A stretch of DNA of 64,000 nt from Peptostreptococcaceae bacterium (GCA_030528605.1 JAUMYO010000004.1:2546-66545); one strand, 5' to 3'; positions 1-52,202 are shown, numbered from the stretch's first letter. Translations and numbers: made by a program. The notes: a model not told the origin generated them from the sequence alone.

Positions 1-3000
1 TTCGATCGAGAAAAATTCCTTCTTCGACTCTTCAGCAATTTTGTATGCTACAGTTTCCCCAAGTCCCGGGATCGATATCAACGGCGGTAATAGTTTGTTA
101 TCGATCAGTTTGAATTTCGTCGCGTCTGATCGATACAGATCGACATTCAGGAGCTCAACGCCTCTAAGGTGCATTTCATATGCCATCTCTAAAACGATCC
201 CCATATTCTTTTCCTTTGCGGTAACTTCATTCCCTTTTGCCTCGATCGCTTTAAGGTTTGCCAAAACGATCTCTTTTCCTTTCAAAATGATCTCAAGATC
301 AAAGTCCTCCGCTTTTGTAGTAAAGAAAGCAGCATAAAAAGCTTCTTTGTGAAAGACTTTGAAGTATGCAATACGAAATGCCATCATTACATAGGCTGCC
401 GCATGTGCTTTCGGGAACATGTATTTTATTTTTTGGCACGAATCGATATACCACTGCGGCACATCATTTTCAAGCATGGATCCTATGTGGTCTTCTTTCA
501 GTCCTTTTCCCTTTCGGACATCCTCCATTATTTTGAATGCTGTAAGCGGTTCAAGCCCTTTTTGGATCAAATAGTTCATAATATCATCTCTGGTAGAGAT
601 GACATCCTTCAATGTCACTATATTGCTACGAATAAGATCCTGGGCATTATTCAGCCATACATCCGTACCATGAGACAGCCCCGATATCTGAAGTAATTCA
701 GCAAAAGTTGTGGGTCTTGTATCCATCAGCATCTGCCGGACGAACTTTGTTCCAAACTCCGGTATTCCTAATGTGCCCGTTTCACAGGATATTGCGGACA
801 GATCACACCCTAATGCTTTTGGGGAAGTGAATAAACTCATAGTCGTTTCGTCATCCAGCGGGATCTCGGTAGCATTTATTCCTGTAAAGTCTTCCAGCAT
901 TCTGATGATCGTCGGTACATCGTGTCCGAGGATATCAAGTTTTAATATACGACCACTGATGGAATGGTAGTCAAAATGGGTCGTCAAAACTTCCGATCTC
1001 ACATCGTTTGCAGGATATTGGATCGGTGTAAAATCATAGATGTCTTTATAATCCGGAACGACCATTACTCCTCCGGGATGCTGACCGGTGGTACGTTTGA
1101 CTCCTGTTACCTTATCGCGAAGACGCATCACTTCGGCATTGTTGATCTTGGCATCATAGTCTTCCATATACTTCATAACATATCCAAAAGCTGTCTTTTC
1201 GGCTACCGTACCGATCGTTCCCGCGCGAAAAACATGATCTTTTCCAAAAAGGTCTTCCGTGTATTTGTGTGCACGCGCCTGATATTCACCTGCAAAATTC
1301 AGATCGATATCCGGCTCCTTATCCCCTTCAAATCCTAAGAATACTTCAAATGGAATATCATGTCCTTCTTTGATAAGTTTCGCCCCGCAATTCGGACACG
1401 ATCTGTCCGGAAGATCCATCCCGGAGGCAATGGAACCATCTGTTATAAATTCACTGTATTTACAATCTCTGCAAATATAATGCGGCGGTAAAGGGTTGAC
1501 TTCCGTGATATCGCTCATCGTTGCTGCAAAAGAAGATCCGACAGAACCTCTTGATCCTACCAAGTATCCGTCTTCGATCGATCTTGTTACCAGTTTTTGA
1601 GCAATGATATACATCACGGCGTATCCGTTTCCGATAATAGAATTCAGTTCTCTATCCAATCGATTTTTGACAAGTTCCGGTAAAGGATCTCCGTAGATCC
1701 TCTTCGCCTTCTCATAACACATTTCTCTCAATTCCACATCCGAGCCTTCGATGATCGGTGGGAAAGTCCCGTCCGGGATCGGCTTAAAAGTTTCTATTTG
1801 GTCCGCAATTCGATTCGTATTTTCTACAACGACTCGATACGCATCCTCTTCTCCCAGATAAGAGAATTCTTCCAACATCTCCTCAGTCGTTCTAAAATAT
1901 AGGGAACCGTTATCCGGATCTTTTGCAAATTTTTGAGCCGCTTTGAATATATCTCGGATCACCCCGTCGCTCCGTTCTATATAGTGAACATCTCCTGTTG
2001 CCACTACAAGTTTTCCGGATCGATTCCCCAGATCCCATATTTTTTTATTGATCTGTTTCAGGTCCTCCTTGGAGTTGACGATCCCTTTTTTGATCATAAA
2101 TTCATTATTTTCCCAAGGCATGATCTCCAAATAGTCATAATAACTAACGATCGTTTCGATCTCATCCATCGGGCGATTATTGAGGACCGCTTGATATACT
2201 TCACCGGACTCACACGCACTACCGATCAGCAGACCTTGGCGATACTTACTAAGCACACTTTTTAGGATCCTAGGCACCTTATAAAAATGATTTATGTGCG
2301 AATCCGAGATGATCTTATACAGATTCTTCAGTCCGATCAGGTCTTTCGCCAAGATCACGATATGATTTGGGCGTTTCGTTTTATGATCCGTATCCACAAA
2401 TTTTTGGTTTACCTGGTCCAGTGTAATGACACCTTGCTCCTTGAACATTTCCAAAAATCTGAGGAATATTTCAGCAGTAGCCTGTGCATCATCTACCGCA
2501 CGGTGATGATTTTCAAGTTTGATCCCCAGTTTTTTCGCCACCACATTCAGACGATGACTCTTCAGATCGGTCAGTAGTGCTCTGGAAACCGAAACCGTAT
2601 CGATCGCTTTGGTATTATACGCCAATCCTAGACGCTCACAGTTGACCTTGATAAAACCTGTATCAAAATCGCTGTTGTGAGCAACAAACATCGCATCTCC
2701 GACAAAGTTCATAAATTCGGGGAGCACTTCTTCGATCTTAGGCTTTCCTGCGAGCATCTCATCCGTTATTCCTGTTAATTCAATGATCTTCGGACTGAGT
2801 TTCCTTTCCGGATCGATCAAGCGACTGAATCGGTCAACGATGGCTCCATCCACGATCTTGACTGCGCCTATCTCCGTGATCCTGTCATTTGCAGAAGAGA
2901 GTCCGGTCGTTTCAATATCAAATACGACAAAAGGCTGACTAAGCAGTAGCGAATTGTATTCCTTTAAAACTTTTTTCGTGTCATCCAGAAAGTATCCTTC

Positions 3001-4107
3001 AACTCCGTAGATGATCTTTATATCACTCTTGGCTCCTTGTTCCATCGCATCCGGAAAGGCTTGTACGACTCCATGATCTGTGATCGCGATCGCGGAATGA
3101 CCAAACTCTTTCGCCTGCTTTATAAGATCCTTTACATTCTCGATCGCATCCATCGATGACATATTACTGTGAAGGTGAAGCTCGACACGCTTGGTATCCG
3201 CATCATCTTTTCGCTTAAACTGCTTGGCGATATTGATATCCTTTAATGTGGCTACGATCTCTTTTTCATAGCTGTCAAAAGCAATATCCGCTTTGACCTT
3301 GATATAACTACCTTCTTTGATAAGCTCGCTCTCATCTTTCCAAAAAACTTTGCACATGATAGAACCTGTATTATCATTCATAGCAAAAGTTTGGATGACG
3401 GATCCTTTATTAAGTTTTCTTGAGGAAGACGCAAAAGTCCGTCCTTCAAAAACAACATTATTCTCTTCAACGCCGAGCTCTGATATCATTTTGGGATCAT
3501 TCATTATAGATCTTCCGCGGATCACTCCGTCCGGTCGATCTTTTTTAGGTTGCGTTTTCTGAGGTTGAGAAAGTTCCTTCATTTTTTCCGTTAATAGCTT
3601 TTCACTATCTTCAAAAAATCGGTCCCTATCAATATCATTTGCAAGGTCTTTCACCACGACCTTCACATCCAGACCCAAGCTCATCGCGATCGACCTCTTG
3701 ATCTGAGTATCAAGCTTCTTGCTCTCAATATTATTTTTAATGACTTTATTGTTTACATTGAGAACGATCTCTTTCTTTTCATTCCCCAGATCTTCGCAGT
3801 CTACAGACACACAGCTTTCGATCTTCTCGCTTACCGGACAAAACTTGCGAAGGATATATTCAATATTAGGGAGATAATTTACGATCCGATCCTTCACATC
3901 ACTATTACCGGTACATTTTGTCAATATAGTTACTTTTTTTAGTATCGGATTTCGCTGTTCACATTCTTTTTCCAACTTGTGCAGGATCTCGTAGTTGATG
4001 ATCTTATCCGATCGGATCAAAAACTCTAATTTAGCTTCATTTTTATATAGTTTGATCCTCTCAAGTTCGATAGCATTCTCTTCTAAATATCGTTTAATGA
4101 TCTGCAT
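1..4107 (-). CDS. polC: DNA polymerase III, PolC type (first ~1369 codons; 3' end runs off the left window edge)
   Basis: Absent from the ORF track because there is no stop in the window. Minus-strand translation from ATG 4107 gives MQIIKRYLEENAIELERIKLYK..., then PHP motif KRVELHLHSNMSSMDAI, exonuclease motifs FVVFDIETTGLS and AHNSDFD, and core GSRGSVGSSF. Follows ispG as in Firmicutes synteny. Confidence 0.95.
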   Translation of the reverse strand, partial: MQIIKRYLEENAIELERIKLYKNEAKLEFLIRSDKIINYEILHKLEKECEQRNPILKKVTILTKCTGNSDVKDRIVNYLPNIEYILRKFCPVSEKIESCVSVDCEDLGNEKKEIVLNVNNKVIKNNIESKKLDTQIKRSIAMSLGLDVKVVVKDLANDIDRDRFFEDSEKLLTEKMKELSQPQKTQPKKDRPDGVIRGRSIMNDPKMISELGVEENNVVFEGRTFASSSRKLNKGSVIQTFAMNDNTGSIMCKVFWKDESELIKEGSYIKVKADIAFDSYEKEIVATLKDINIAKQFKRKDDADTKRVELHLHSNMSSMDAIENVKDLIKQAKEFGHSAIAITDHGVVQAFPDAMEQGAKSDIKIIYGVEGYFLDDTKKVLKEYNSLLLSQPFVVFDIETTGLSSANDRITEIGAVKIVDGAIVDRFSRLIDPERKLSPKIIELTGITDEMLAGKPKIEEVLPEFMNFVGDAMFVAHNSDFDTGFIKVNCERLGLAYNTKAIDTVSVSRALLTDLKSHRLNVVAKKLGIKLENHHRAVDDAQATAEIFLRFLEMFKEQGVITLDQVNQKFVDTDHKTKRPNHIVILAKDLIGLKNLYKIISDSHINHFYKVPRILKSVLSKYRQGLLIGSACESGEVYQAVLNNRPMDEIETIVSYYDYLEIMPWENNEFMIKKGIVNSKEDLKQINKKIWDLGNRSGKLVVATGDVHYIERSDGVIRDIFKAAQKFAKDPDNGSLYFRTTEEMLEEFSYLGEEDAYRVVVENTNRIADQIETFKPIPDGTFPPIIEGSDVELREMCYEKAKRIYGDPLPELVKNRLDRELNSIIGNGYAVMYIIAQKLVTRSIEDGYLVGSRGSVGSSFAATMSDITEVNPLPPHYICRDCKYSEFITDGSIASGMDLPDRSCPNCGAKLIKEGHDIPFEVFLGFEGDKEPDIDLNFAGEYQARAHKYTEDLFGKDHVFRAGTIGTVAEKTAFGYVMKYMEDYDAKINNAEVMRLRDKVTGVKRTTGQHPGGVMVVPDYKDIYDFTPIQYPANDVRSEVLTTHFDYHSISGRILKLDILGHDVPTIIRMLEDFTGINATEIPLDDETTMSLFTSPKALGCDLSAISCETGTLGIPEFGTKFVRQMLMDTRPTTFAELLQISGLSHGTDVWLNNAQDLIRSNIVTLKDVISTRDDIMNYLIQKGLEPLTAFKIMEDVRKGKGLKEDHIGSMLENDVPQWYIDSCQKIKYMFPKAHAAAYVMMAFRIAYFKVFHKEAFYAAFFTTKAEDFDLEIILKGKEIVLANLKAIEAKGNEVTAKEKNMGIVLEMAYEMHLRGVELLNVDLYRSDATKFKLIDNKLLPPLISIPGLGETVAYKIAEESKKEFFSIE

Positions 4108-33378: not shown

Positions 33379-35760
33379 CTATCTCAGAACAGCATTCGCT
33401 TCAATTTCAAGCTGCTGCAGGATCTTCTCCAATACCGGATCGATCTCTTCATCCGTCAAGGTCCGATCGCTCGCTCGGAATACCAGAGAAAACGCCACCG
33501 ATTTTTTATTTTCGCCCACCTGTTCTCCCTCGAATATATCGAAAAGCTTCACCGATTCCAAGTTTTTCTTTCCATACTTCTTGATGACGATCTCAAGAGA
33601 ACCTACAGCAGTTGATCGATCAACAACAAGAGCGATATCCTTGGTGATCGCCGGGAATCTTGGGATCTGATGATAAAGGACTTTAACATCAGAATGTTTC
33701 TGCGCCTTATCGATATAGATCTCAAAAAGATATACTCGCTTTTTGAGATCAAAATTTTCAAGAACGAGCGGATGGATCTCTCCGATCGTCGCAACGATAT
33801 CATCTCCGACATACACATCGGCACATCTGCCAGGATGATAAGTTTCGTTTTCTTTCTGCTTCACATAAGAGGCATCCTTGATCCCTATTCCTTCCAAAAT
33901 GCCTTGCAGTCTGGATTTTGCTGTAAAGAAACTCTCTCTGTCTCCATACACTCCCGCAACAAAAGATTTTTCTTCACTCGGAAGCTCCTCTCCTGTATCA
34001 AAGAAAGTATTTCCGTATTCAAACGCTGCAAACTCTTCATTCTTTTGAGAAATATTGGTATGGATCACTTCCAGCATCTCCGGTATCAGAGTCGTTCGCA
34101 TAACCGAGGTTTCTTCTCCAAGCGGATTTAGAAGTCGCAATGATCTATGATATTTTTCCCCTTGGATCTTGGTCTTCTTGATGGATGCAGGACTGATGAA
34201 AGAATATGTTGTGATCTCCGTCAACCCGTTCTCTCTGGCAAGGAGTTTCACACGATCTTCAAAATGTCGATCCTCTGATTTGATCGCTTGTGTTACCGGA
34301 GCAATGATCGGATTAGAACGGATATTATTATATCCGTAGATCCTGGTGATCTCTTCTATGATGTCTTCTTGGATCGTCATATCCATACGCTCCGCCGGAA
34401 CGACCACTTGGAGTTTGTCTCCATCCGCATGGACTTGGAATAACAGCTTTTGTAAGATGTCACAGATCGTTTTTTGTGGCAGCTTTTCGCCGATCAAGCG
34501 ATCGATCGTGCTGAATTTTGTCTCGATCATAGTCGGTTTATACTCATTTTCATATAAGTCGATACGATCTGAGACTACCTTTCCAAACCCCAGCTTTTCG
34601 ATCAGATGACATGCTCTGTCGATAGCATCTTTTGGGCGAAGAACATCGATCCCTTTTTCAAAATTTGAAGAGGCATCCGTTCGGATCCCAAGCCTTCTTG
34701 ATGTTAAGCGAATATTATCTGCGTCAAAATTTGCCGCTTCCAAGAAAATGTTTTTTGTGTTTTCGTCGATCTGAGTGCTTGCTCCACCCATCACGCCGGC
34801 GATGCCGATCGGCTTTTCTCCATCTGTGATCAACAATACATCTTCATCCAAATCATGCTCCAGATCATCCAAAGTCGTAATTTTTTCATCGGATCTTGCT
34901 CTGCGAACTACGATCTTCTTACTGTTCAGTTTGTCCGCATCATACGCATGAAGAGGCTGACCGTACTCGATCATAACATAGTTTGTGATATCGACGATAT
35001 TATTTATCGGTCTCATCCCATAACGGATCAGGCGTTGCTGTAACCAAAAAGGTGACGGACCGATCTTTACATCACGGATCTCTCGAAGGATAAATCTCGG
35101 ACAAAGATCTTTATCTAACACTTCCACCTGCGCAGAGATCTTATCATCGAGCTCTGCATGAAGTGAGATATCCGGTAGAGTGAATTTGGTATCCAAAGTT
35201 GCTGCGGTCTCTTTTGCTATTCCGATCAGAGAACGGCAGTCCGGTCGATTTGCTGTCAACTCAAACTCGATCACGACATCTTTTAACCCCATAGCTTCTA
35301 CTACATCCGCTCCGATCACGAAGTTTTCGCCCAGAAGATAGATCCCGTTTTTAGATCTTTCTTCAACATATTTGGTATCGATACCGAGTTCTTCACAGGA
35401 ACAAAGCATCCCGAAAGAATCAACTCCTCGTAATTTCCCTTTTTTGATCTTGATCCCATTTGGCAATACTGCCCCTTCCACAGCGACCGGAACGATATCC
35501 CCTACGGAAATATTATTTGCCCCCGTAACGATCTGAAGAAGGTCTTCTTTTCCTACATTTATCTTTGTGATCTGTAGTTTATCCGCATCCGGATGAGGAT
35601 GGATCTCCTCGATCTTTCCGATCGATATATTGACTATTTTGTCCCCAAGGTACTCGATCGTTTCTACTTTTGTCCCTGACATCGTCATTTCGTCGGCATA
35701 TCTTCTCGGTTCTACATTGATATCAACATAATCTTTCAGCCAATTTAATGATACTCTCAA
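33379..35760 (-). CDS. pheT: phenylalanine--tRNA ligase beta subunit
   Basis: 793 aa; MRVSLNWLKDYV N-terminus, tRNA-binding, B3/4, B5 and FDX-ACB layout. Confidence 0.95.
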   Translation of the reverse strand: MRVSLNWLKDYVDINVEPRRYADEMTMSGTKVETIEYLGDKIVNISIGKIEEIHPHPDADKLQITKINVGKEDLLQIVTGANNISVGDIVPVAVEGAVLPNGIKIKKGKLRGVDSFGMLCSCEELGIDTKYVEERSKNGIYLLGENFVIGADVVEAMGLKDVVIEFELTANRPDCRSLIGIAKETAATLDTKFTLPDISLHAELDDKISAQVEVLDKDLCPRFILREIRDVKIGPSPFWLQQRLIRYGMRPINNIVDITNYVMIEYGQPLHAYDADKLNSKKIVVRRARSDEKITTLDDLEHDLDEDVLLITDGEKPIGIAGVMGGASTQIDENTKNIFLEAANFDADNIRLTSRRLGIRTDASSNFEKGIDVLRPKDAIDRACHLIEKLGFGKVVSDRIDLYENEYKPTMIETKFSTIDRLIGEKLPQKTICDILQKLLFQVHADGDKLQVVVPAERMDMTIQEDIIEEITRIYGYNNIRSNPIIAPVTQAIKSEDRHFEDRVKLLARENGLTEITTYSFISPASIKKTKIQGEKYHRSLRLLNPLGEETSVMRTTLIPEMLEVIHTNISQKNEEFAAFEYGNTFFDTGEELPSEEKSFVAGVYGDRESFFTAKSRLQGILEGIGIKDASYVKQKENETYHPGRCADVYVGDDIVATIGEIHPLVLENFDLKKRVYLFEIYIDKAQKHSDVKVLYHQIPRFPAITKDIALVVDRSTAVGSLEIVIKKYGKKNLESVKLFDIFEGEQVGENKKSVAFSLVFRASDRTLTDEEIDPVLEKILQQLEIEANAVLR

Positions 35761-35772
35761 AAATACACCCCC

Positions 35773-36792
35773 TTAAAACTGCCTTAAGAATCTGAGATCA
35801 TTCTCATAGAACAATCGAATGTCTTCAATTCCATATTTTAACATTGCGATACGATCGATCCCCATTCCAAATGCAAACCCGGAATACTCTGTCGGATCGA
35901 TCCCGCAGTTTTTGAGTACATTGGGATGGACCATGCCGGCTCCCAATATCTCGATCCAACCTTCCTGCTTACAGATCGGGCAACCCTCTCCACGACATTT
36001 GAAACAGGTGATATCGACCTCCGCACTCGGCTCTGTAAAAGGAAAATTATGGGGTCTGAATTTTGCTTTAGTCTGCGGTCCGAACATCTGGCGAACAAAA
36101 GTTTCCAATGTGTCTTTCAAGTTAGCAAAAGTGATATCCTTATCTACCACCAACCCCTCGATCTGATGAAACATCGGCGAATGGGTCGCATCCGGAGTAT
36201 CATATCGAAAACATCTTCCCAGCGATACCATACGGATCGGCGGTTTTTGATTTTTCATGGTTCGGATCTGGACGGTCGAAGTGTGTGGTCTCAAAACGAT
36301 ATCCTTAGAAAAATAAAAAGTGTCGCTCATCTCTCTGGAAGGATGATATTTTGGTGAATTCAAATGGTCAAAACTGTTTTGGACCGTTTCCACCTCGGGA
36401 CCTTCTTCGATCGAAAAACCCATGGACATAAAGATCTCTTCGATCTCACTCATAGCTAAACTGATCGGATGCCTTTTGCCGACAAAAGTCGGATCTGCCG
36501 GGATCGTAACATCGATCTCTTCCGACAGGAGCTTCTTTTCAAGAACTTTTGCTTTAAGCTCCGTTTTCATTTGTTCGATCTTACCTTCAATATCCGAACG
36601 GATACTGTTTGCGATCGACCCCATCTCCGGTCGAACATCTGCAGGAAGTTTGCCTATCTCTTTGAGCATATTGGCAAGCTCATTCTTTTTTCCCAAAAAT
36701 TTCACTCGGATCTCTTCGATCTCATTAAGATCTATTGCTGAGCTCAGTTGATCGATCGCCTGTTCTTTTAGTTTTAATAATCTATCTTTCAA
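35773..36792 (-). CDS. pheS: phenylalanine--tRNA ligase alpha subunit
   Basis: 339 aa, TTG start behind GAGGTG; class II motifs FRYDTPDATHSPMFHQIEG and GFAFGMGIDRIAMLKYGI. Confidence 0.95.
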   Translation of the reverse strand: MKDRLLKLKEQAIDQLSSAIDLNEIEEIRVKFLGKKNELANMLKEIGKLPADVRPEMGSIANSIRSDIEGKIEQMKTELKAKVLEKKLLSEEIDVTIPADPTFVGKRHPISLAMSEIEEIFMSMGFSIEEGPEVETVQNSFDHLNSPKYHPSREMSDTFYFSKDIVLRPHTSTVQIRTMKNQKPPIRMVSLGRCFRYDTPDATHSPMFHQIEGLVVDKDITFANLKDTLETFVRQMFGPQTKAKFRPHNFPFTEPSAEVDITCFKCRGEGCPICKQEGWIEILGAGMVHPNVLKNCGIDPTEYSGFAFGMGIDRIAMLKYGIEDIRLFYENDLRFLRQF

Positions 36793-36995: not shown

Positions 36996-39638
36996 CTATT
37001 TTCTCAACTGATCTATTCTCTCGATCACATTACTCAACATCTCTTTGTACTTATCGATCTTCGCTCTTTCTTCATCGATCAGACTCTGAGGTGCTTTCGC
37101 AACAAATCCCTGATTATTTAATTTCCCTTCGGCACGCTTGATCTCATCTTCAAATTTATTTTTTTCTTTTGAAAGACGCTCCAATTCTTTCTCATAGTCG
37201 ATCAGATCCGCCAATGGGATATAGATCTTGACCCCCTCCACTACCACATTTAGAGCATCTTCCGTACGATATTCTTTTTCGACAAACTCCACGCCTGAAG
37301 CGGAGGCAAGAGACATAAAATATCCTAAATGATCCTCCAATGCACTCTTCAAAGAATCTTCCGCATCAAATATCAGTTTAGCTTTTTTAGAAGGAGGGAC
37401 ATTCATCTCCGCTCTGGCATTTCGTATAGATCGGATCATTTCCATTATTTTAGACATCATTTGCTCCGCTTGCTCATTATGCTCTTTTTCTTCATAAGTC
37501 GGCCAAGCAGAAACAATGATCTTCTCATCCGAAGTCAATTTAGAATAGATCTCCTCGGTAATGAATGGCATAAATGGATGCAAAAGTTTCAAGATCCCTT
37601 CCAAAACATATTTTGCCGTACTCAATGCCATCTGTTTTGCTTGAATATCATCCCCGTATAATCTGGACTTGATCAACTCCAAATACCAATCGCAAAATTC
37701 AGACCACGCAAACTCATACACTTTTTCTGCAGCGATCCCGAGCTCAAACTTATCTAAGTTTACAGTCACTTCTTTTGTCACCGTATTAAGTCTGGATATG
37801 ATCCATCGATCACTGAGCTCCAAACCCTCTTGAAGCTCATTTAAATCTTTCGGAAGTTCTACATTTTCCATGTTCATCAATATGAAACGGGAAGCATTCC
37901 ATATTTTGTTTGCAAAGTTTCGAGACGCTTCGACTCTCTCCATATGAAAGCGCATATCATTCCCCGGGGAGTTTCCTGTTGCAAGAGTGAAGCGCAAAGC
38001 ATCCGCACCATATCGTTCGATGATATCCAGTGGATCGATCCCGTTACCCAGCGACTTACTCATCTTCTTACCCTCGGCATCACGAACCAAGCCATGAAGC
38101 AAAACATGTCTGAACGGCACTTCGTTCATGCAGAACATCGCGGCAAACACCATTCGGATGACCCAGAAGAAAATGATGTCCGGACCCGTAACAAGGACCG
38201 AGGTCGGATAATAATAGCGCAACAGTGCGGTACTGTTCGGCCATCCCAATGTACTGAAAGGCCAAAGTGCTGACGAGAACCAAGTATCAAGCACATCTTC
38301 ATCCTGTACGAATCGGCTCGATCTGCACTTTGGACACCTTGTGGGGAAAGTCCTGGATACTACGATCTCATCACAATCTTGGCAATAGTAAGCCGGGATC
38401 CGATGCCCCCACCAGAGCTGACGAGAAATATTCCAATCACGGATATTTTCAAGCCAATGATAATAGATCTTGTCAAAACGATTCGGAACAAGTTCCAGCT
38501 CTTTGTTTTGAAGTGCTTCGATCGCCGGTTTTGCCAGGTCTTCCATTTTGACAAACCACTGTTTTGAAAGCATCGGTTCAATGACCGTATCACATCGGTA
38601 ACAATGACCGACATTGTGAACATGATCTTTGATCTTCGCGATCGATCCGTCCTTTTCCAGATCTTCCACGATGGCTTTTCTTGCTTCAAATCGGCTCATT
38701 CCTTTATACTTACCCGCGTTCTCATTCATGACCCCATTGTCATCCATGATCCTCACACGAGGCAACGAATGGCGCTGACCGACTTCAAAGTCATTCGGGT
38801 CATGTGCCGGCGTGATCTTTACCACACCCGTTCCGAATTCCTTATCCACATAATCATCTTCGATGATCGGGATCTCTCGATCTACGTAAGGAACGGTAAC
38901 CGTCATACCGATGTATTTTTTATATCGTTCATCATTCGGATTGACTGCAACTGCCGTATCTCCCAAAATCGTCTCCGGTCTGGTGGTCGCGACCTCCAAT
39001 TTTTCACCGGTCTCTTTGATCGTATAATAAAAATGATAGAACTTACCCTGCGTTTCTTCGTGCTCCACTTCAGCATCGGAAAGAGATGTCGTACAATCCG
39101 GACACCAGTTGATGATCCGGTTGCCTCGATAGATATGACCTTGCTCGTACAGATCGACGAAAAATTCCGTAACGGCTTTGTTCAATCCCTCGTCCATCGT
39201 AAATCGTTCTTTTTCCCAATCGCATGAATCGCCGAGTTTTTTCATCTGCTCTACGATGCGACTGCCGAATTCATCTCGCCATGCCCACGCTCTTTTCAAA
39301 AACTCTTCTCGCCCCAGCTCCAACTTGCTGAGACCTTCCTGCTCTTTGATACGCTCTACGACTTTGACTTCGGTTGCGATCGAGGCATGATCCGTGCCGG
39401 GCTGCCAAAGAACATTGTAGCCCTGCATTCTCTTAAATCTTATAAGAATATCTTGTAATGTGTGATCCAAGGCATGTCCCATGTGTAGCTGCCCTGTAAT
39501 ATTCGGCGGAGGCAGCATGATCGTGAAGGGTTCTTTTGAGGCATCCGGTTTTGCAGTGAAATAACCGCCTTCCTCCCACATTTTATAGATCCTGCTCTCA
39601 AACTCCTTTGGGTCGTATGTCGTCGATAAATTTGCCAT
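36996..39638 (-). CDS. valS: valine--tRNA ligase
   Basis: About 880 aa; class I HIGH (QLHMGHAL) and KMSKS motifs, C-terminal coiled coil. Start placed at MANLSTTYDP. Confidence 0.95.
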   Translation of the reverse strand: MANLSTTYDPKEFESRIYKMWEEGGYFTAKPDASKEPFTIMLPPPNITGQLHMGHALDHTLQDILIRFKRMQGYNVLWQPGTDHASIATEVKVVERIKEQEGLSKLELGREEFLKRAWAWRDEFGSRIVEQMKKLGDSCDWEKERFTMDEGLNKAVTEFFVDLYEQGHIYRGNRIINWCPDCTTSLSDAEVEHEETQGKFYHFYYTIKETGEKLEVATTRPETILGDTAVAVNPNDERYKKYIGMTVTVPYVDREIPIIEDDYVDKEFGTGVVKITPAHDPNDFEVGQRHSLPRVRIMDDNGVMNENAGKYKGMSRFEARKAIVEDLEKDGSIAKIKDHVHNVGHCYRCDTVIEPMLSKQWFVKMEDLAKPAIEALQNKELELVPNRFDKIYYHWLENIRDWNISRQLWWGHRIPAYYCQDCDEIVVSRTFPTRCPKCRSSRFVQDEDVLDTWFSSALWPFSTLGWPNSTALLRYYYPTSVLVTGPDIIFFWVIRMVFAAMFCMNEVPFRHVLLHGLVRDAEGKKMSKSLGNGIDPLDIIERYGADALRFTLATGNSPGNDMRFHMERVEASRNFANKIWNASRFILMNMENVELPKDLNELQEGLELSDRWIISRLNTVTKEVTVNLDKFELGIAAEKVYEFAWSEFCDWYLELIKSRLYGDDIQAKQMALSTAKYVLEGILKLLHPFMPFITEEIYSKLTSDEKIIVSAWPTYEEKEHNEQAEQMMSKIMEMIRSIRNARAEMNVPPSKKAKLIFDAEDSLKSALEDHLGYFMSLASASGVEFVEKEYRTEDALNVVVEGVKIYIPLADLIDYEKELERLSKEKNKFEDEIKRAEGKLNNQGFVAKAPQSLIDEERAKIDKYKEMLSNVIERIDQLRK

Positions 39639-39663
39639 AACTTCCACTCTCCTCTTGTGTATA

Positions 39664-39893
39664 AATCAAAAGATCCCCCATCACAAAGGACGAGGGATCC
39701 GCGGTACCACCTTAATTCCGACATTGTCGGCTCTTTATTTCTTTAACGCAGAACTACGTTGTTGCTACTGCTATTTCACAACAAAACTCCAAAGCTACAT
39801 CGACAGTTTATTCCAAGAAATTTTCCAGCCACGAATTTCTCTCTCTTTAGGTGTAGGCTGCCGACCTCTTCTTCAACGTACTATATCAAATTT
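39664..39893 (-). promoter_or_regulatory. T-box leader (tRNA-sensing riboswitch), probable Val (GUC) specifier
   Basis: Minus strand contains AGAGA and GGCUGGAAA stem I elements, a candidate specifier loop GGAAUAAACU-GUC-GAUG, the T-box AAUUAAGGUGGUACCGCGGAUCC (39696-39718), and the terminator GAUCCCUCGUCC..GAUGGGGGAUCUUUU. Confidence 0.85.
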
Positions 39894-43401: not shown

Positions 43402-44019
43402 TCATTTCTTGAAATTGATCTCCACTTTTTTCGATGCTTGATCAAACTTTATATCCATTCCCTGGTCTCTCAGGTCAGCCAAGCGGATAAAATTCTGATC
43501 ATTCTTTTTGATCACATCGACAAGCACTTCTTTCCCATTGATCTTTACCTTTTCTTTTACTACCACTTCCTCATCCTCCCTTTCGATCTTAAACGATGCG
43601 ACCTTTGCCGGGTCCATTTCAATATGTGGCGCATCCGAATAACTTTTCCAACGACCGCCCCAGGTGAGCCCCATTTTTTCGGCGATCTCTCCGGCTTTTC
43701 GTAGGATCGTATCATCGTATAGCTGTGCAGGCGGACTGCATGCGATATCGATCGCAAGTCCTGATTGATGTCTGGATTTGATATATATCCCATCACATCT
43801 GGTCACAGTTACCATTTGATGCTTTTTATATGGATTCGTCTTGGTCCTGCCCCAGCTGTAATATTCCTGCTGTGTTTCGACGGTCCGAAACGTCTGCGTG
43901 ATAAAAATATTGACTCCTGCAGCCTTGCATCTTCTCAAAAATTCTTCAGTCGCCATTTGCATTTTAGGTTGTAGCCTTTTAATGTCTTTGATCAGGGTCG
44001 GCGGTACTCCTCTTTCCAT
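43402..44019 (-). CDS. endolysin, peptidase M15 (VanY / L-alanyl-D-glutamate peptidase type) with C-terminal binding domain
   Basis: Start moved to ATG 44019 behind GGAGATG. HQSGLAIDI and WGGRWKSYSDAPHIE zinc-peptidase motifs; about 65 aa C-terminal extension. Confidence 0.9.
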   Translation of the reverse strand: MERGVPPTLIKDIKRLQPKMQMATEEFLRRCKAAGVNIFITQTFRTVETQQEYYSWGRTKTNPYKKHQMVTVTRCDGIYIKSRHQSGLAIDIACSPPAQLYDDTILRKAGEIAEKMGLTWGGRWKSYSDAPHIEMDPAKVASFKIEREDEEVVVKEKVKINGKEVLVDVIKKNDQNFIRLADLRDQGMDIKFDQASKKVEINFKK

Positions 44020-44020
44020 A

Positions 44021-44356
44021 TTACATCTCCTTGATCTCTGCACTCCATCCTTTAACGTTGAAATAGTCCACGATCGTTTCGATCACTACATCCGCTTGCT
44101 CCGGTGTTACATTGATCTTATTTCTTGCCAGCCAATCCAGCACAAATTCTTTTTTAAGCAGTCCTTGCCCTTTCTCTTTGTAGATATTCTCGGCAAACTT
44201 GATCCCCTTTTCCGCCCAATAGAGCAATTCCAGTCGCTGTTTCTCGCTTGTGTTTTCATCGATCCATTTTTTAATGGAAGGGATCAAAAACGCTGAAATG
44301 ATCAGCAATCCGATTTTGATCAACATCAGTACGATCTCAAATATCTCTTGTTTCAT
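44021..44356 (-). CDS. phage holin, LL-H-like
   Basis: 111 aa; single N-terminal TM (IVLMLIKIGLLIISAFLIP) plus a long hydrophilic tail; immediately upstream of the endolysin. Confidence 0.7.
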   Translation of the reverse strand: MKQEIFEIVLMLIKIGLLIISAFLIPSIKKWIDENTSEKQRLELLYWAEKGIKFAENIYKEKGQGLLKKEFVLDWLARNKINVTPEQADVVIETIVDYFNVKGWSAEIKEM

Positions 44357-48643: not shown

Positions 48644-49356
48644 TATAACCACCTCCAATTTGGCTGTATCACGACTTTAGAGACATTCCCGCTCCACCGG
48701 ATCGTATTTTCTCCGGTGTTAAAAGTCGGAAACTCCTCCGCCTCAAAGTCGTTATTTTTATTCCGATCATCTTTATACACTTCCATCATCTCTGAATTTA
48801 TCGTCACGCTGCCAGATATGTTCTTGATCCTATACGATCTGTCGTTGACCACCAGCGTTACCGTCCCCAATCCGAATACTTCGATGATCGGTTCACTTTC
48901 AAAAGTACCTTTGTTGTGAAAAATAACTGCCGATGTCGCGATGATCTCATCATCCAATGGCGATGCCGAAAACTTGAACGGATGCGTATCGAGCTGCAGC
49001 AAAAAACTCTTAAACTTTGTTGCAGCATATACCATATCGATCTGATTTACTACGACAACTTTATATTTCTTTGTCAGGTCATCCGAGAAGATCACCTCTC
49101 CCGCCCCTCGAAACAGTGCCGCGATCTTATCGATCTGCTCAAGATCGGTTACCAAACATTCGAGCGACAACGTATAATTTTCAAACGCATTTTCAAACTC
49201 ATGCAATGTGCCCGATCGCCCGGGAATATGGATGCTGCTGATCTTTTCTTTTGCACGCGGAGAAGATGGCATCTGTTGTATCACTAATCCCAACTCATCC
49301 GATCGGATACCGTTGAAAATCATGTAATTCTTCCGGAGTATGTGTTCGCTTATCAT
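48643..49356 (-). CDS. distal tail protein (Dit, siphovirus tail component)
   Basis: 237 aa; MIFNGIRSDELGLVI...IPGRSG pattern; follows the tape measure gene with an ATGA overlap. Confidence 0.8.
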   Translation of the reverse strand: MISEHILRKNYMIFNGIRSDELGLVIQQMPSSPRAKEKISSIHIPGRSGTLHEFENAFENYTLSLECLVTDLEQIDKIAALFRGAGEVIFSDDLTKKYKVVVVNQIDMVYAATKFKSFLLQLDTHPFKFSASPLDDEIIATSAVIFHNKGTFESEPIIEVFGLGTVTLVVNDRSYRIKNISGSVTINSEMMEVYKDDRNKNNDFEAEEFPTFNTGENTIRWSGNVSKVVIQPNWRWL

Positions 49357-50862
49357 GATATCCCTTCTCTCCTTTTTCTGTAAAATTCCAGCTCCTCTGC
49401 AAAATTCTGTATGTCTCTTTCATTCCCATTGTTCACATTGGCGATATGGATCACCATCCCTCCATCCGATGACTGTTTTCGATCTGATGAAATTAAGCTT
49501 TGTGTGTCTGAAACAGAATAGCTTACATTGCCTTTGATATTTGCTATGGCATCATATCCGTCAATCGTGGTTTGAGCTAGTGAGCGCATGGCATCCGATA
49601 TCGGTTTTTTTGCATCATAGATTCCATCCGCAATGATCGCAAAATCCAACTTATTCAGATCCCGTAGCGGTCCTTCTTTTGCCGGCGAGAACGGCAAGTG
49701 ATCCCTTATTTTTTGAACCACATTCCCGATCGCATCCGTCACAGCTCCGATCGCTCCTTTGATCCCATCCGCAATGGATGTAACGATGTTCTTCCCTGCA
49801 TCAAAAAATCGGTCTTTCCACTCCCTCACTTTATCCATCAGCCCGCTCATGATCTCACCGATCTTGCTATACAGCTCTTTGGCGATCGATCCGACTCCCA
49901 AAACGATATTTTTTAGGATCTCCGCTCCTGCGCCAAAAACACTCGGCAGTTTCGACACGATCATAGCTATAAATTTTACGATGATCTCTCCTGCTGCCGT
50001 CACGATTTTCGGAATAGCCTTGATAATACCGCTCACTAATTCCGTAGCTATATTTACTCCTGATTTAAGGTATTGGGGGTAATTCTGAATGATTGTGTCC
50101 AAAAATTTACTTATTACTTGAATCGTACTATCCGCAACCACCGGCAGATTTTCCAAAATCCCCGACACCAAAGACAGCAGTAGATCTTTCCCCGCTGTTA
50201 AGATTACAGGGATATTTGTCATCAAAAAACCGACAAATCCGGCAATAATATCTCCCGCCGCCGTAATAAACTCCGGCATTCCTCGTAAAATACCGGAGAT
50301 CAAATTGCGGATCAACTCCACTCCTTGATTTAGAAACATCGGTAGATTTGCCGTAATGGTATTCAGTCCATCCACAACCATTCCCGAAAAATTCGATAAG
50401 AATGAGAATGAGCCCGCTGTCATTCCCATAGAAATTTGATTGATAATATTACTCCCCGCCTCCAAAAGATGAGGGATCGCCGCTTGAACGAATGTCGCAA
50501 GAGCTGAAGGAAGTCCGACTATAATGTTCCCCAGCATCGGGAGGAGATTTTTGAAAACGAATGTTGCCGTTGTTTGAGCCAATGCCTGTAGATGCGGTGT
50601 AATGTCCTGTCCGAGAGATAGACCCCCCAGAACATTTTTGAACGATGCTTTCATAGATGCCATCGAACCCTGAAGTGTTTCCGCCGCTTCTTTTGCTGTA
50701 GTCCCGGTAATCCCAAGCTCCCCTTGGATCACATTGATCGCGTGAAACACATCCGACAAATTACTGATGTCATAGTCCATTCCGGATATTTTGCCCGCAT
50801 CCGCAAGCAACCTTTGCATCTCCTCTTTTGTTCCGCCATATCCCAATTTCAAGTTATCCAAC
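49353..50862 (-). CDS. tail tape measure protein, exon 2 (inferred)
   Basis: Encodes (M)LDNLKLGYGGTKEEMQRLLADAGK..., with long Gly/Ala/Ile-rich helical repeats. The track start is a TTG directly preceded by in-frame TAA-TGG, with no SD. Confidence 0.8.
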
Positions 50863-51705
50863 CATTACTACCCCCGGTTTCCCGGAATTTAAAAAGGAAC
50901 TTACGTTATATAAGCTCCTTAGGGATTAGACTATATCTTCAACTAATTCAAAATACCAATGTTTTTTATTCCCTTTTTGATAAATATAATTGTATTTGAT
51001 TTGTGATGTGTGGCAATCAAATCGTTTTGCAGCCCTATTTCTTGAATTAAAAACTAAAACCTCTCCAGTTAAAGAATGGATCGCTCTGACCGGCTTTTGT
51101 TTGTTTTTTATCCTATTTCTATAGCCTGACGCCATGTAGTTACCTGTTGCATCGATCCATCTTAGGTTTTCTATTCTGTTATCCGACTTGATCCCATTTA
51201 TATGATCCACTTGAGGCAGATTTTGAGGATTTGGAATAAATTCCTCCGCTATTATCCTGTGTATGTATAGCGGCATTGTTTTTCCACCTAACATCACTTG
51301 ACAATATCCATCTTTTCTTGTAGAGATCTTTAATATTCTCCCCGTCTTTCTATTCCTTACCTCTCCAAGCTCACTTACTTCATAATTAGGCTTTTGTTTA
51401 ATAGTTTTCCAAATCATATATTCCCTCTCTAAGATACATGATATCTTAAAAGGCTTAACTGGGACTATTCACACATTGATAGTTTGACAAGTTGGCACGC
51501 GCTTCCGATCACGTATCAATAGTGACCGTACTGAGTAACAAACTCATAGTCGTTACACCTTCCTCTCTCGAGGCTTGGCACGGGATCGTCATATCATTTC
51601 TGACTTAGAGTTCCCCCGTTAGCAAATGCACAACACGCATTCACACCCTTGATAAGGTTCACGTGCATTCACTGTATAATCACTTATACAGCGGACATTG
51701 ATTTT
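50863..51705 (-). mobile_element. group-I-like intron with embedded homing endonuclease gene (boundaries inferred)
   Basis: 843 nt between the two tape-measure halves. The upstream exon ends in U and the insert ends in G. Candidate P1 pairs exon UUAUACGAU with intron GCUGUAUAA; a CCGG-GAAA-CCGG hairpin lies near the 3' end. Confidence 0.65.
50926..51417 (-). CDS. HNH homing endonuclease (NUMOD4 + HNH_3 type)
   Basis: 163 aa; WKTI..NYEVSELGEVRN, HRIIAEEFIPNP, QVDHINGIKSDNRIENLRW. Confidence 0.9.
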   Translation of the reverse strand: MIWKTIKQKPNYEVSELGEVRNRKTGRILKISTRKDGYCQVMLGGKTMPLYIHRIIAEEFIPNPQNLPQVDHINGIKSDNRIENLRWIDATGNYMASGYRNRIKNKQKPVRAIHSLTGEVLVFNSRNRAAKRFDCHTSQIKYNYIYQKGNKKHWYFELVEDIV

Positions 51706-52202
51706 ATCGTATAATTTTGTTTTGCAAACCCTTGATACGCATTTTGGATCGATCCGATCGCCGTTCCCATCTTATTCGCATTATCCGCCATGTCGATCAT
51801 CGCCATGTTGGCATCTTCCGCCGACCAATCCAGTCGCCCCTCATTCGCTTTGATCAGAGCTGCCGAAAAAGAAGTGACACTTTGCATATACTCATTCGCA
51901 GAAACACCTACTGTCTTGTAAGCATCATTCGCATAGTTCTTGATCGTATCCGCGTGATCTTTGAACATCGTCTCCACACCGCCCAGCGATTGTTGCAATT
52001 CTCCTCCTTCGGTCAGAGAACTCCCAACAAATTTCCCGATCGCCGCCGCCGTGATCGCACCTTTGATCATAGAAACCAATTTACTCCCGGCAGCACTTCC
52101 TGCAGCACTCATACCCGGTTCGATCTCTTTTTGGATCATCCCGGCGATACCCTTTGCCGATGGCATGATCTGTACATACGCTTGACCCAATTCCGTTGCC
52201 AT
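51706..52202 (-). CDS. tail tape measure protein, exon 1 (inferred)
   Basis: MATELGQAYVQIMPSAKGI...AYQGFAKQNYT. The track ORF reads on into the insert for 7 codons and then stops. Confidence 0.8.

Follow-up and report, generated by a model that had tools for sequence, protein, structure and literature searches.

A probable td-like group I intron with an HNH homing endonuclease gene in the tape measure gene of a Firmicute prophage

Phage group I introns that carry HNH enzymes are known from SPO1, Twort and T4, and the thymidylate synthase (td) intron of phage T4 belongs to subgroup IA2 and is established to be self-splicing. In the SPO1 DNA polymerase intron, the open reading frame (ORF) for the HNH endonuclease I-HmuI is located in L8. 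Group I introns in genes for tape measure proteins (TMP) have been known since 2008, when TMP-IVS1 and TMP-IVS2 (both IA2) and TMP-IVS3 (IA1) were described at three sites in prophage TMP genes of the Bacillus cereus group, in copies with and without complete endonuclease genes (Tourasse and Kolsto, 2008; PMC2504315). Here we analyzed 64,000 nt of DNA of a Peptostreptococcaceae bacterium (GCA_030528605.1, JAUMYO010000004.1:2546-66545; hereafter the window), in which the TMP gene of a prophage is very probably split by a group I intron of subgroup IA2, similar to that of T4 td, with an HNH homing endonuclease (positions 50863-51705). This intron family and its insertion site are a further example of the TMP introns and open no new question. 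Positions refer to the whole window, and all features of the TMP gene and the intron are on the minus strand.

The locus shares several properties with the introns of the B. cereus group (PMC2504315). In both cases the gene is the TMP gene of a temperate Firmicute siphovirus, the introns are of the phage-type IA class and interrupt highly conserved exon stretches, copies exist with or without a complete endonuclease gene, and P1 and P10 are adapted to the site. This comparison is by description, and the copies considered here differ in occurring in phages of Streptococcus and Lactococcus and in contigs of Clostridia/Tissierellia type. BLAST searches detected no similarity to B. cereus phages at the DNA level, and a literature search found no paper on this intron family or site.

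Within the window, three ORFs of 172 aa (51684-52202), 163 aa and 502 aa (49353-50861, with TTG as start codon) follow one another in a row. The insert that separates the outer two consists of the 163-aa ORF with 288 nt of noncoding sequence on its 5′ side and 63 nt on its 3′ side, and its removal joins exons 1 and 2 (Table 1) in frame into 2007 nt, encoding 668 aa plus a stop codon. At the nucleotide junction 51706/50862, ...AAUUAUACGAU would be joined to GUUGGAUAAC. The resulting peptide, ...AYQGFAKQNYT-M-LDNLKLGYGG... (AYQGFAKQNYTMLDNLKLGYGGTKEEM, with LDNLKLGYGGTKEEM following the methionine), is contiguous in the Streptococcus phages Javan240, where the intron-less site reads AAGCAGAATTATACTATGCTAGATAACCTC, and Javan423. 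In IMG/VR, which has at least 600 related viral contigs, the motif is unbroken in every one of the best 80. A shift of the junction by even one base leads to a different product. Among the PHROG families, 15 that carry the annotation tape measure protein match the spliced protein, with E-values of 2.7e-71 for phrog_6900 and 2.3e-68 for phrog_58, and the phrog_6900 alignment covers residues 1-191, crossing the junction at 166/167. The insertion site is the most conserved motif (..GFAKQNYT/MLDNLKLGYGG..) of a siphovirus-type prophage TMP gene.

A preliminary description of this DNA had read the outer ORFs as the two halves of a single TMP gene, and the joined product is indeed colinear with uninterrupted homologues. 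We reproduced all of its coordinates and domains for the 843-nt insert, the flanks and the NUMOD4/HNH_3 ORF, as well as the joined length of 669 codons, and both the exon-final U (51706) and the insert-final G (50863) are present. The junction peptide, which it regarded as a conserved tape measure motif, is intact in Javan240, Javan423 and the 80 best relatives, and the alignment with uninterrupted homologues that it proposed as a check fixes the insertion point exactly. Its central claim, a TMP gene interrupted by a group-I-like intron with an HNH endonuclease, is supported by this insertion point, together with the co-varying fold, the likeness to td and the homology to I-HmuI described below.

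When drawn, the sequence flanking the 163-aa ORF forms a complete group I core, comprising the R element (..ACGACUA), the S element (AAGAUAUAGUC), the P3-P8 and P4-P6 domains and the P3/P7 pseudoknot that results from the pairing of P7. For a covariation analysis we aligned 18 distinct ORF-deleted introns using MAFFT, with the P8 loop replaced by an artificial GAAA. Over the 90 proposed pairs, 95.4% of the cells hold standard pairs, compared to 31-42% in controls with the 3′ partners shifted by 1-3 columns, and compensatory changes on both sides were found in 42 pairs. None of 500 shuffles matched any of the observed measures. Compensatory support was obtained for P2, P3, two extra hairpins that lie between the 5′ strand of P3 and J3/4 (P3.1 and P3.2; 51622..51657), P4, P5, P5a, P6a, P7.1, P7.2, P8, P9a, P9b and P10. 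For P10, in which the guide UCAAU (51701-51697, within the P1 loop) pairs with GUUGG, this amounts to one compensatory change in addition to wobble changes, with 100% pairing in the 18 sequences. P7.1 and P7.2, the signature of subgroup IA, are 98-99% paired, and P7 itself is invariant, 100% paired and in agreement with both the Rfam consensus and td. RNAalifold, which is blind to our drawing and does not consider pseudoknots, recovered 14 of the 18 helices (P10, P2, P3, both extra hairpins, P4, P5, P5a, P6, P6a, P7.1, P7.2, P8, and P9b).

The Rfam group I model (Intron_gpI, RF00028), proposed as a check in the preliminary description, identifies the core by E-value. As the 640-nt insert in P8 splits the model, the window gives two partial matches: one at 51547-51619 to model positions 60-148 (P4-P6 and the R element; 21.4 bits, E = 0.007), and one at the 3′ end of the ORF to the S element UGAAGAUAUAGUCUAAUC (22.3 bits, E = 0.004). 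The ORF-less homologue L020 aligns with the full model (positions 1-253, 34.9 bits, E = 3.2e-7). In these alignments the hairpins P3.1/P3.2 and P7.1/P7.2 are counted as insertions. P3.1 is listed among the optional pairings of group I introns (PMC3873408), and the extra hairpins are therefore peripheral variation rather than a new architecture. The invariant GAAA in the loop of P9b and the receptor-like P5, which in relatives has the form CCUAAA/CAUGG, likely make an L9-P5 tetraloop-receptor contact, by analogy with group I introns of solved structure.

Table 1. Coordinates of the exons, the intron elements and the endonuclease ORF in the window.
Feature	Position	Strand	Details
TMP exon 1	51706..52202	-	497 nt; codons 1-165 and first two bases of the Met166 codon
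Probable group I (IA2-like) intron	50863..51705	-	843 nt, from first base A (51705) to terminal G (50863)
P1	51694..51708	-	exon GAU (51708-51706) with intron GUC (51696-51694); U51706.G51696 at the 5′ splice site; invariant in 18 homologues
P2	51672..51691	-	CUGUAUAA (51691-51684), GUGA loop, UUAUACAG (51679-51672); 100% paired, 2 compensatory pairs (18 introns)
P3 5′ strand GCACGUG	51660..51666	-	pairs with CGCGUGC (51501-51495); 7 bp, 100% paired, 3 compensatory pairs
P3.1	51657-51647	-	CCUU-AUC-AAGG; 2 compensatory pairs
P3.2	51644-51622	-	GUGAAUGC...GCAUUUGC; 5 compensatory pairs
P4 (P4-P6 domain 51557..51619)	51619-51614 / 51585-51580	-	ACGGGG with UCCCGU; compensatory pairs
P5	51609-51608 / 51590-51589	-	UC with GA; compensatory pairs
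P5a	51604-51593	-	with P5 forms the 11-nt-receptor-like UCUAAG/UAUGA; compensatory pairs
P6	51579-51578 / 51558-51557	-	within the P4-P6 domain
P6a	51573-51562	-	CCUC-GAGA-GAGG; compensatory pairs
P7 5′ strand GACUA	51547..51551	-	R element ..UAACGACUA; pairs with UAGUC 50933-50929
P7.1	51546-51532	-	UGAGU-UUGUU-ACUCA; 2 compensatory pairs
P7.2	51528-51506	-	CGGUCAC...GUGAUCG; 6 compensatory pairs
P3 3′ strand CGCGUGC, then P8 5′ strand CAACU	51501-51495, 51494-51490	-	directly adjoining
HNH homing endonuclease ORF (predicted)	50926..51417	-	163 aa, in the P8 loop; Shine-Dalgarno sequence GAGAGGG 51429-51423
S element: P8 3′ AGUUG, J8/7 AAGAUA, P7 3′ UAGUC	50944-50940, between, 50933-50929	-	Rfam alignment; 19/21 identical to td
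P9.0 (3′ domain 50863..50924)	50924-50922 / 50873-50871	-	CCC with GGG; invariant
P9a	50918-50911 / 50903-50896	-	GGAGCUUA with UAAGUUCC; variable or absent in relatives
P9b	50885-50874	-	CCGG-GAAA-CCGG; 4 compensatory pairs, GAAA loop invariant
Terminal G	50863	-	last base in all copies
TMP exon 2	49353..50862	-	1510 nt including stop; first bases GUUGG (50862-50858) form P10

Some assignments in this drawing had competitors. The preliminary description had proposed that exon UUAUACGAU pairs with intron GCUGUAUAA (51692-51684) as the guide pairing. The complementarity exists, but it is not P1. The intron strand belongs to P2 as its 5′ side, and its changes in relatives are matched by changes in the downstream UUAUACAG (CUGCGUAA/UUAUGCAG and CUGCAUAG/CUAUGUAG) and not by changes in the exon. 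The complementarity of the exon is a by-product of its resemblance to the 3′ strand of P2. The two hairpins noted in the 3′ tail, CCGG-GAAA-CCGG and an 8-bp GGAGCUUA/UAAGUUCC stem, correspond to P9b and P9a. A second S-like element, GAAUAGUCC (~51475), was considered as the 3′ strand of P7, which would place the ORF in P9; it was rejected, since it is absent from relatives and since in L020, which lacks the ORF, CAACUG...CAGUUG runs straight into the ORF-end AAGAUAUAGUC. Likewise, GCAUUUGC was rejected as the 5′ strand of P3 (with the hairpins then being P2.1-like), as every relative shows covariation between this strand and its partner in the hairpin, whereas the strand preceding P8 co-varies with GYRSGUG.

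The closest established ribozyme is that of td. When seven core elements were compared with the td locus of a T4-type phage, 88 of 109 positions were identical, and because of this identity and the presence of P7.1/P7.2 the intron was placed in the phage IA2 type. Strings shared with td include P2 GUAUAAG-GUGA, CUAACGGGG-AAC, AUCCCGUGC, UAACGACUAU, CAACUUG, AGUUGRAGAUAUAGUCU and the terminal ..UAAUG, and both introns have a short P1 with a U.G pair and end in ..AAUG. In contrast to td, which carries the GIY-YIG enzyme I-TevI between P6 and P7, the window intron has an HNH ORF in the P8 loop, two additional hairpins between P3 and J3/4, another host gene and a Gram-positive host.

The 163-aa ORF is predicted to encode an I-HmuI-like HNH endonuclease. 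Both NUMOD4 (8.9e-13) and HNH_3 (9.7e-11) of Pfam match above their cutoffs, HNH families of PHROG are matched as well (phrog_59 at 7e-38), and the structure of I-HmuI (PDB 1U3E) is matched at 1.1e-12 with DH..N..NLRW aligned. The homology to I-HmuI extends over residues 1-102 and includes the NUMOD4-like N-terminus and the DH..N..N motif. Both enzymes reside in phage group I introns of Firmicutes, but the host genes differ and the similarity (~35-40% identity) is confined to the N-terminal two thirds. The ORF is full length compared to 14 ORFs of the family, with the motif VDHINGIKSDNRIENLRW, conserved in 15 family ORFs, intact, and its AUG is preceded at 5 nt by the Shine-Dalgarno sequence GAGAGGG. 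The last codons, V-E-D-I-V-stop, double as the 3′ strand of P8, J8/7 and the 3′ strand of P7, and every family ORF ends in ..V(E/K)DIV-stop because of this overlap with ribozyme strands. Its predicted target is the intron-less TMP allele ..AAYTAYACNATGYTNGAYAA...

The same split arrangement was found by BLAST in the genomes of Lactococcus phage 38502 and of the Streptococcus phages Str-PAP-1 and Javan271. With the conserved 5′ motif AATGTCCGCTGNNTANGTGA, 45 contigs were retrieved from IMG/VR, and in all of them the intron follows the same codon (..AAY TAY ACG AU/, with ..TCG AU/ in one divergent TMP). Three further copies, in contigs of metagenome-assembled genomes (MAGs) of Oscillospiraceae, Eubacteriales and Tissierellia, were kept from a scan of genome contigs in which 8 of the 11 matches were due to chance. 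The copies differ in their endonuclease gene. L020, L051 and MissG1 lack the ORF but keep the ribozyme; in the 302-nt intron of L020, P8 (CAACUG-AUAAAUA-CAGUUG) is followed directly by AAGAUAUAGUC. The short introns L024, L026/L027 and L032 keep the ribozyme too, and retain in the P8 loop only C-terminal endonuclease codons (..KGWRFEIVKDIV-stop, ..GWTFELVEDIV-stop and ..RGWTLNLVKDIV-stop), and the codons retained are those that double as P8 3′ strand, J8/7 and P7 3′ strand. The P8 hairpin of L020 and these remnants place the ORF of the window intron in the P8 loop. Judged from the sequences, these copies show the classical homing cycle, in which an intron invades and its ORF then decays and is lost. 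Introns with the complete ORF, with a remnant of it or without it, as well as empty sites, are found at a single position and form a clean natural series, in a family that is spread over distant lineages of Firmicute phages.

The exon flanks of the copies are also characteristic, as every intron-bearing allele reads NCG AU/G UUR. These are the bases required by P1, in which C51694 is the partner of G-3, and by P10, in which A51699/A51698 are the partners of U+2/U+3. In a set of 67 distinct alleles without the intron, the threonine codon is ACA, ACC, ACG or ACU in 21, 19, 17 and 10 cases, respectively, the leucine codon is mostly CUN, and the combination of NNG with UUR occurs in only 6. This bias fits selection for splicing or co-conversion during homing, both of which are expected of a mobile group I intron.

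The following course of events, modeled on the established chemistry of group I introns, can be proposed. The transcript of the tail operon would fold into the P1-P9 ribozyme, and free guanosine bound at P7 would attack after U51706, held in P1 by the U.G pair with G51696. The terminal G50863 would next occupy the G site, P10 (UCAAU/GUUGG) would align exon 2, and ligation of the exons would restore one TMP frame of 668 aa. The presumed substrates of the I-HmuI-like enzyme are intron-less TMP alleles of related phages in the same host; after a nick or cut, repair would copy the intron into them.

Family members vary in the periphery of the intron, and some of these features resemble signals for transcription. 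Larger members have an enlarged hairpin after P3 that contains GCAGGAAAUGGC. P6a is expanded and holds near-consensus sigma-70 promoters (TTGACT/TTGCAA-N17-TATAAT) in L003, L007, L017, L037, L039, L048 and L049, and an extended -10 element (TGnTATAAT) is found just upstream of the HNH ORF in L001, L002, L008 and L050. In the window, the P9a hairpin followed by UUUUU (50885-50920, minus strand) was flagged as terminator-like, and the tail CUUUUUAAAU is conserved where P9a is present. P9a could act as an attenuator of transcription into exon 2 or mark the end of endonuclease transcripts.

These features could form the basis for a wider interpretation, namely that the copies on the single codon of QNYT/MLDNLKLGYGG constitute a distinct and widespread IA2 sub-lineage in phages of Lactobacillales, Clostridia and Tissierellia that is more than a passive parasite. 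The co-varying hairpins between P3 and J3/4, the sigma-70-type promoters in P6a of the larger members and the terminator-like P9a could be seen in this light, yet we regard this extension as rather unlikely. If true, the intron might time or throttle the production of TMP. When unspliced, exon 1 continues for 7 codons (IKSMSAV) into the intron up to a UAA inside P2, so that a 172-aa N-terminal TMP fragment might be made.

Several observations weigh against a functional group I intron in the window. The Rfam scores of the window (~22 bits) and of L020 (~35 bits) are both below the gathering threshold of 50 bits. P1 comprises only 3-4 bp, and for P1, P7 and P9.0, which do not vary within the family, covariation is uninformative. 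The same 18 sequences served to draw the structure and to evaluate it, which favors the drawing over the slid controls, and as these introns are related the shuffle statistics are inflated and should be taken as supportive rather than as formal probabilities. With regard to the endonuclease, in place of the TGnTATAAT element that precedes the ORF in several relatives, the window has only TATCTT, a promoter scan of the window intron gave nothing above chance level, and expression of the enzyme from this copy is uncertain. Finally, we infer splicing, endonuclease activity and its target from sequence.

One alternative is a decayed intron: the element is part of a possibly defective prophage, integrated in the chromosome of a bacterium that is uncultured, and the promoter-like element seen in relatives is degenerate in the window, so that this copy might no longer splice and the TMP gene be dead. 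However, the window copy forms every helix of the family, and none of the 150+ family-invariant positions is altered in it, among them those of J3/4, J6/7, J8/7 and P7 and the terminal G. The two exons and the 163-aa ORF are likewise undamaged and complete. We consider a decayed intron very unlikely.

We give hardly more than marginal credence to a truly split gene, in which a free-standing HNH gene would lie between two separately made TMP halves and the flanks would not form a ribozyme. GenBank records of relatives do annotate two TMP or minor tail proteins, the Rfam scores are below the gathering score, and the downstream half has a TTG with a G-rich stretch upstream. The preliminary description had argued that this half is not translated on its own, as it has no Shine-Dalgarno sequence and a TTG after a stop codon. 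An in-frame TAA is indeed located two codons upstream of the TTG, but the first part is slightly overstated, given the GGGGG run 9-13 nt upstream of it; this run belongs to the P9.0/P9b helices and would be locked in them. Moreover, a complete group I core, in which 42 pairs co-vary, can be folded from the flanks, ORF-less relatives keep an RNA of ~300 nt at the exact codon, which makes no sense for a mere spacer, and at least 80 close relatives have an undivided gene. Two separate proteins as the ancestral state, which the preliminary description had named as grounds for abandoning the intron, do not agree with the uninterrupted gene in the 80 best relatives.

Taken as a bare interruption of a conserved protein motif, the insert could also be an intein, a group II intron or a translational bypass, but the probability of this is negligible, since a stop is in frame 7 codons after the junction, there is neither a reverse transcriptase nor an Rfam group II match, 843 nt is far beyond known bypass lengths, and the R and S elements of group I and the P3/P7 pseudoknot are present.

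For a group I intron, the current annotation of two TMP or minor tail ORFs with an HNH gene would have to be replaced by one spliced TMP gene with an intron-encoded endonuclease. The same correction applies to Lactococcus phage 38502, Str-PAP-1, Javan271 and MissG1, and predictions of tail length from the size of TMP depend on the joining of the exons. The GenBank records KX160204 (38502), NC_028666, MK448723 (Javan271) and OL774877 treat each TMP half as a "tape measure" or "minor tail" protein of its own; a "Phage intron" is noted for Javan271 alone, and none of the records joins the exons. In MissG1 (OL774877), the ORF-less intron is labeled only as "ncRNA".

The genes next to TMP are Phage_TTP_17 (tail tube) and DUF5361 (chaperone) upstream and BppU_N downstream, an order that fits the tail module of a siphovirus. 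The prophage extends from ~43.4 kb upward, with its lysis end near 43402-44043. A T-box leader (39683-39885, minus strand; 108 bits, above the Rfam cutoff) precedes ValRS, followed by PheS and PheT (ORFs 36996-39647, 35773-36792 and 33379-35760 in this region, minus strand). This part is therefore bacterial chromosome, of a Firmicute host with ~42% G+C, and the phage genes represent an integrated prophage. No close relative of the prophage was found among known phages (megablast, INPHARED), and an Rfam scan of the whole window and the prophage gave no further intron.

Additional insertions were observed in two relatives. In L032 (IMGVR_UViG_3300021255_000229), the frame is broken after ..LDNLKLG, ~24 nt past the 3′ splice site, by a structured-looking ..GCAUAAGGCAAUACCGUGCGAAGC.., which suggests a second intron only 8 codons away; the TMP motif may thus be an insertion hot spot. 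Str-PAP-1 (L002; NC_028666, locus 2774-3793) has a second, upstream insertion with a different "homing endonuclease" (locus 3111-3731), so that its TMP gene has two endonuclease-bearing insertions. With these two cases, the motif seems to have attracted several introns independently. A related core (~73% identity over 160 nt) is present in Staphylococcus phage PMBT8 (L063; MK893987, locus 2501-2673) and also in PT1-1 and PT94. The gene concerned in PMBT8 is an unrelated one, with a "hypothetical protein" ORF on either side of the core, and the ribozyme lineage is therefore not limited to TMP genes.

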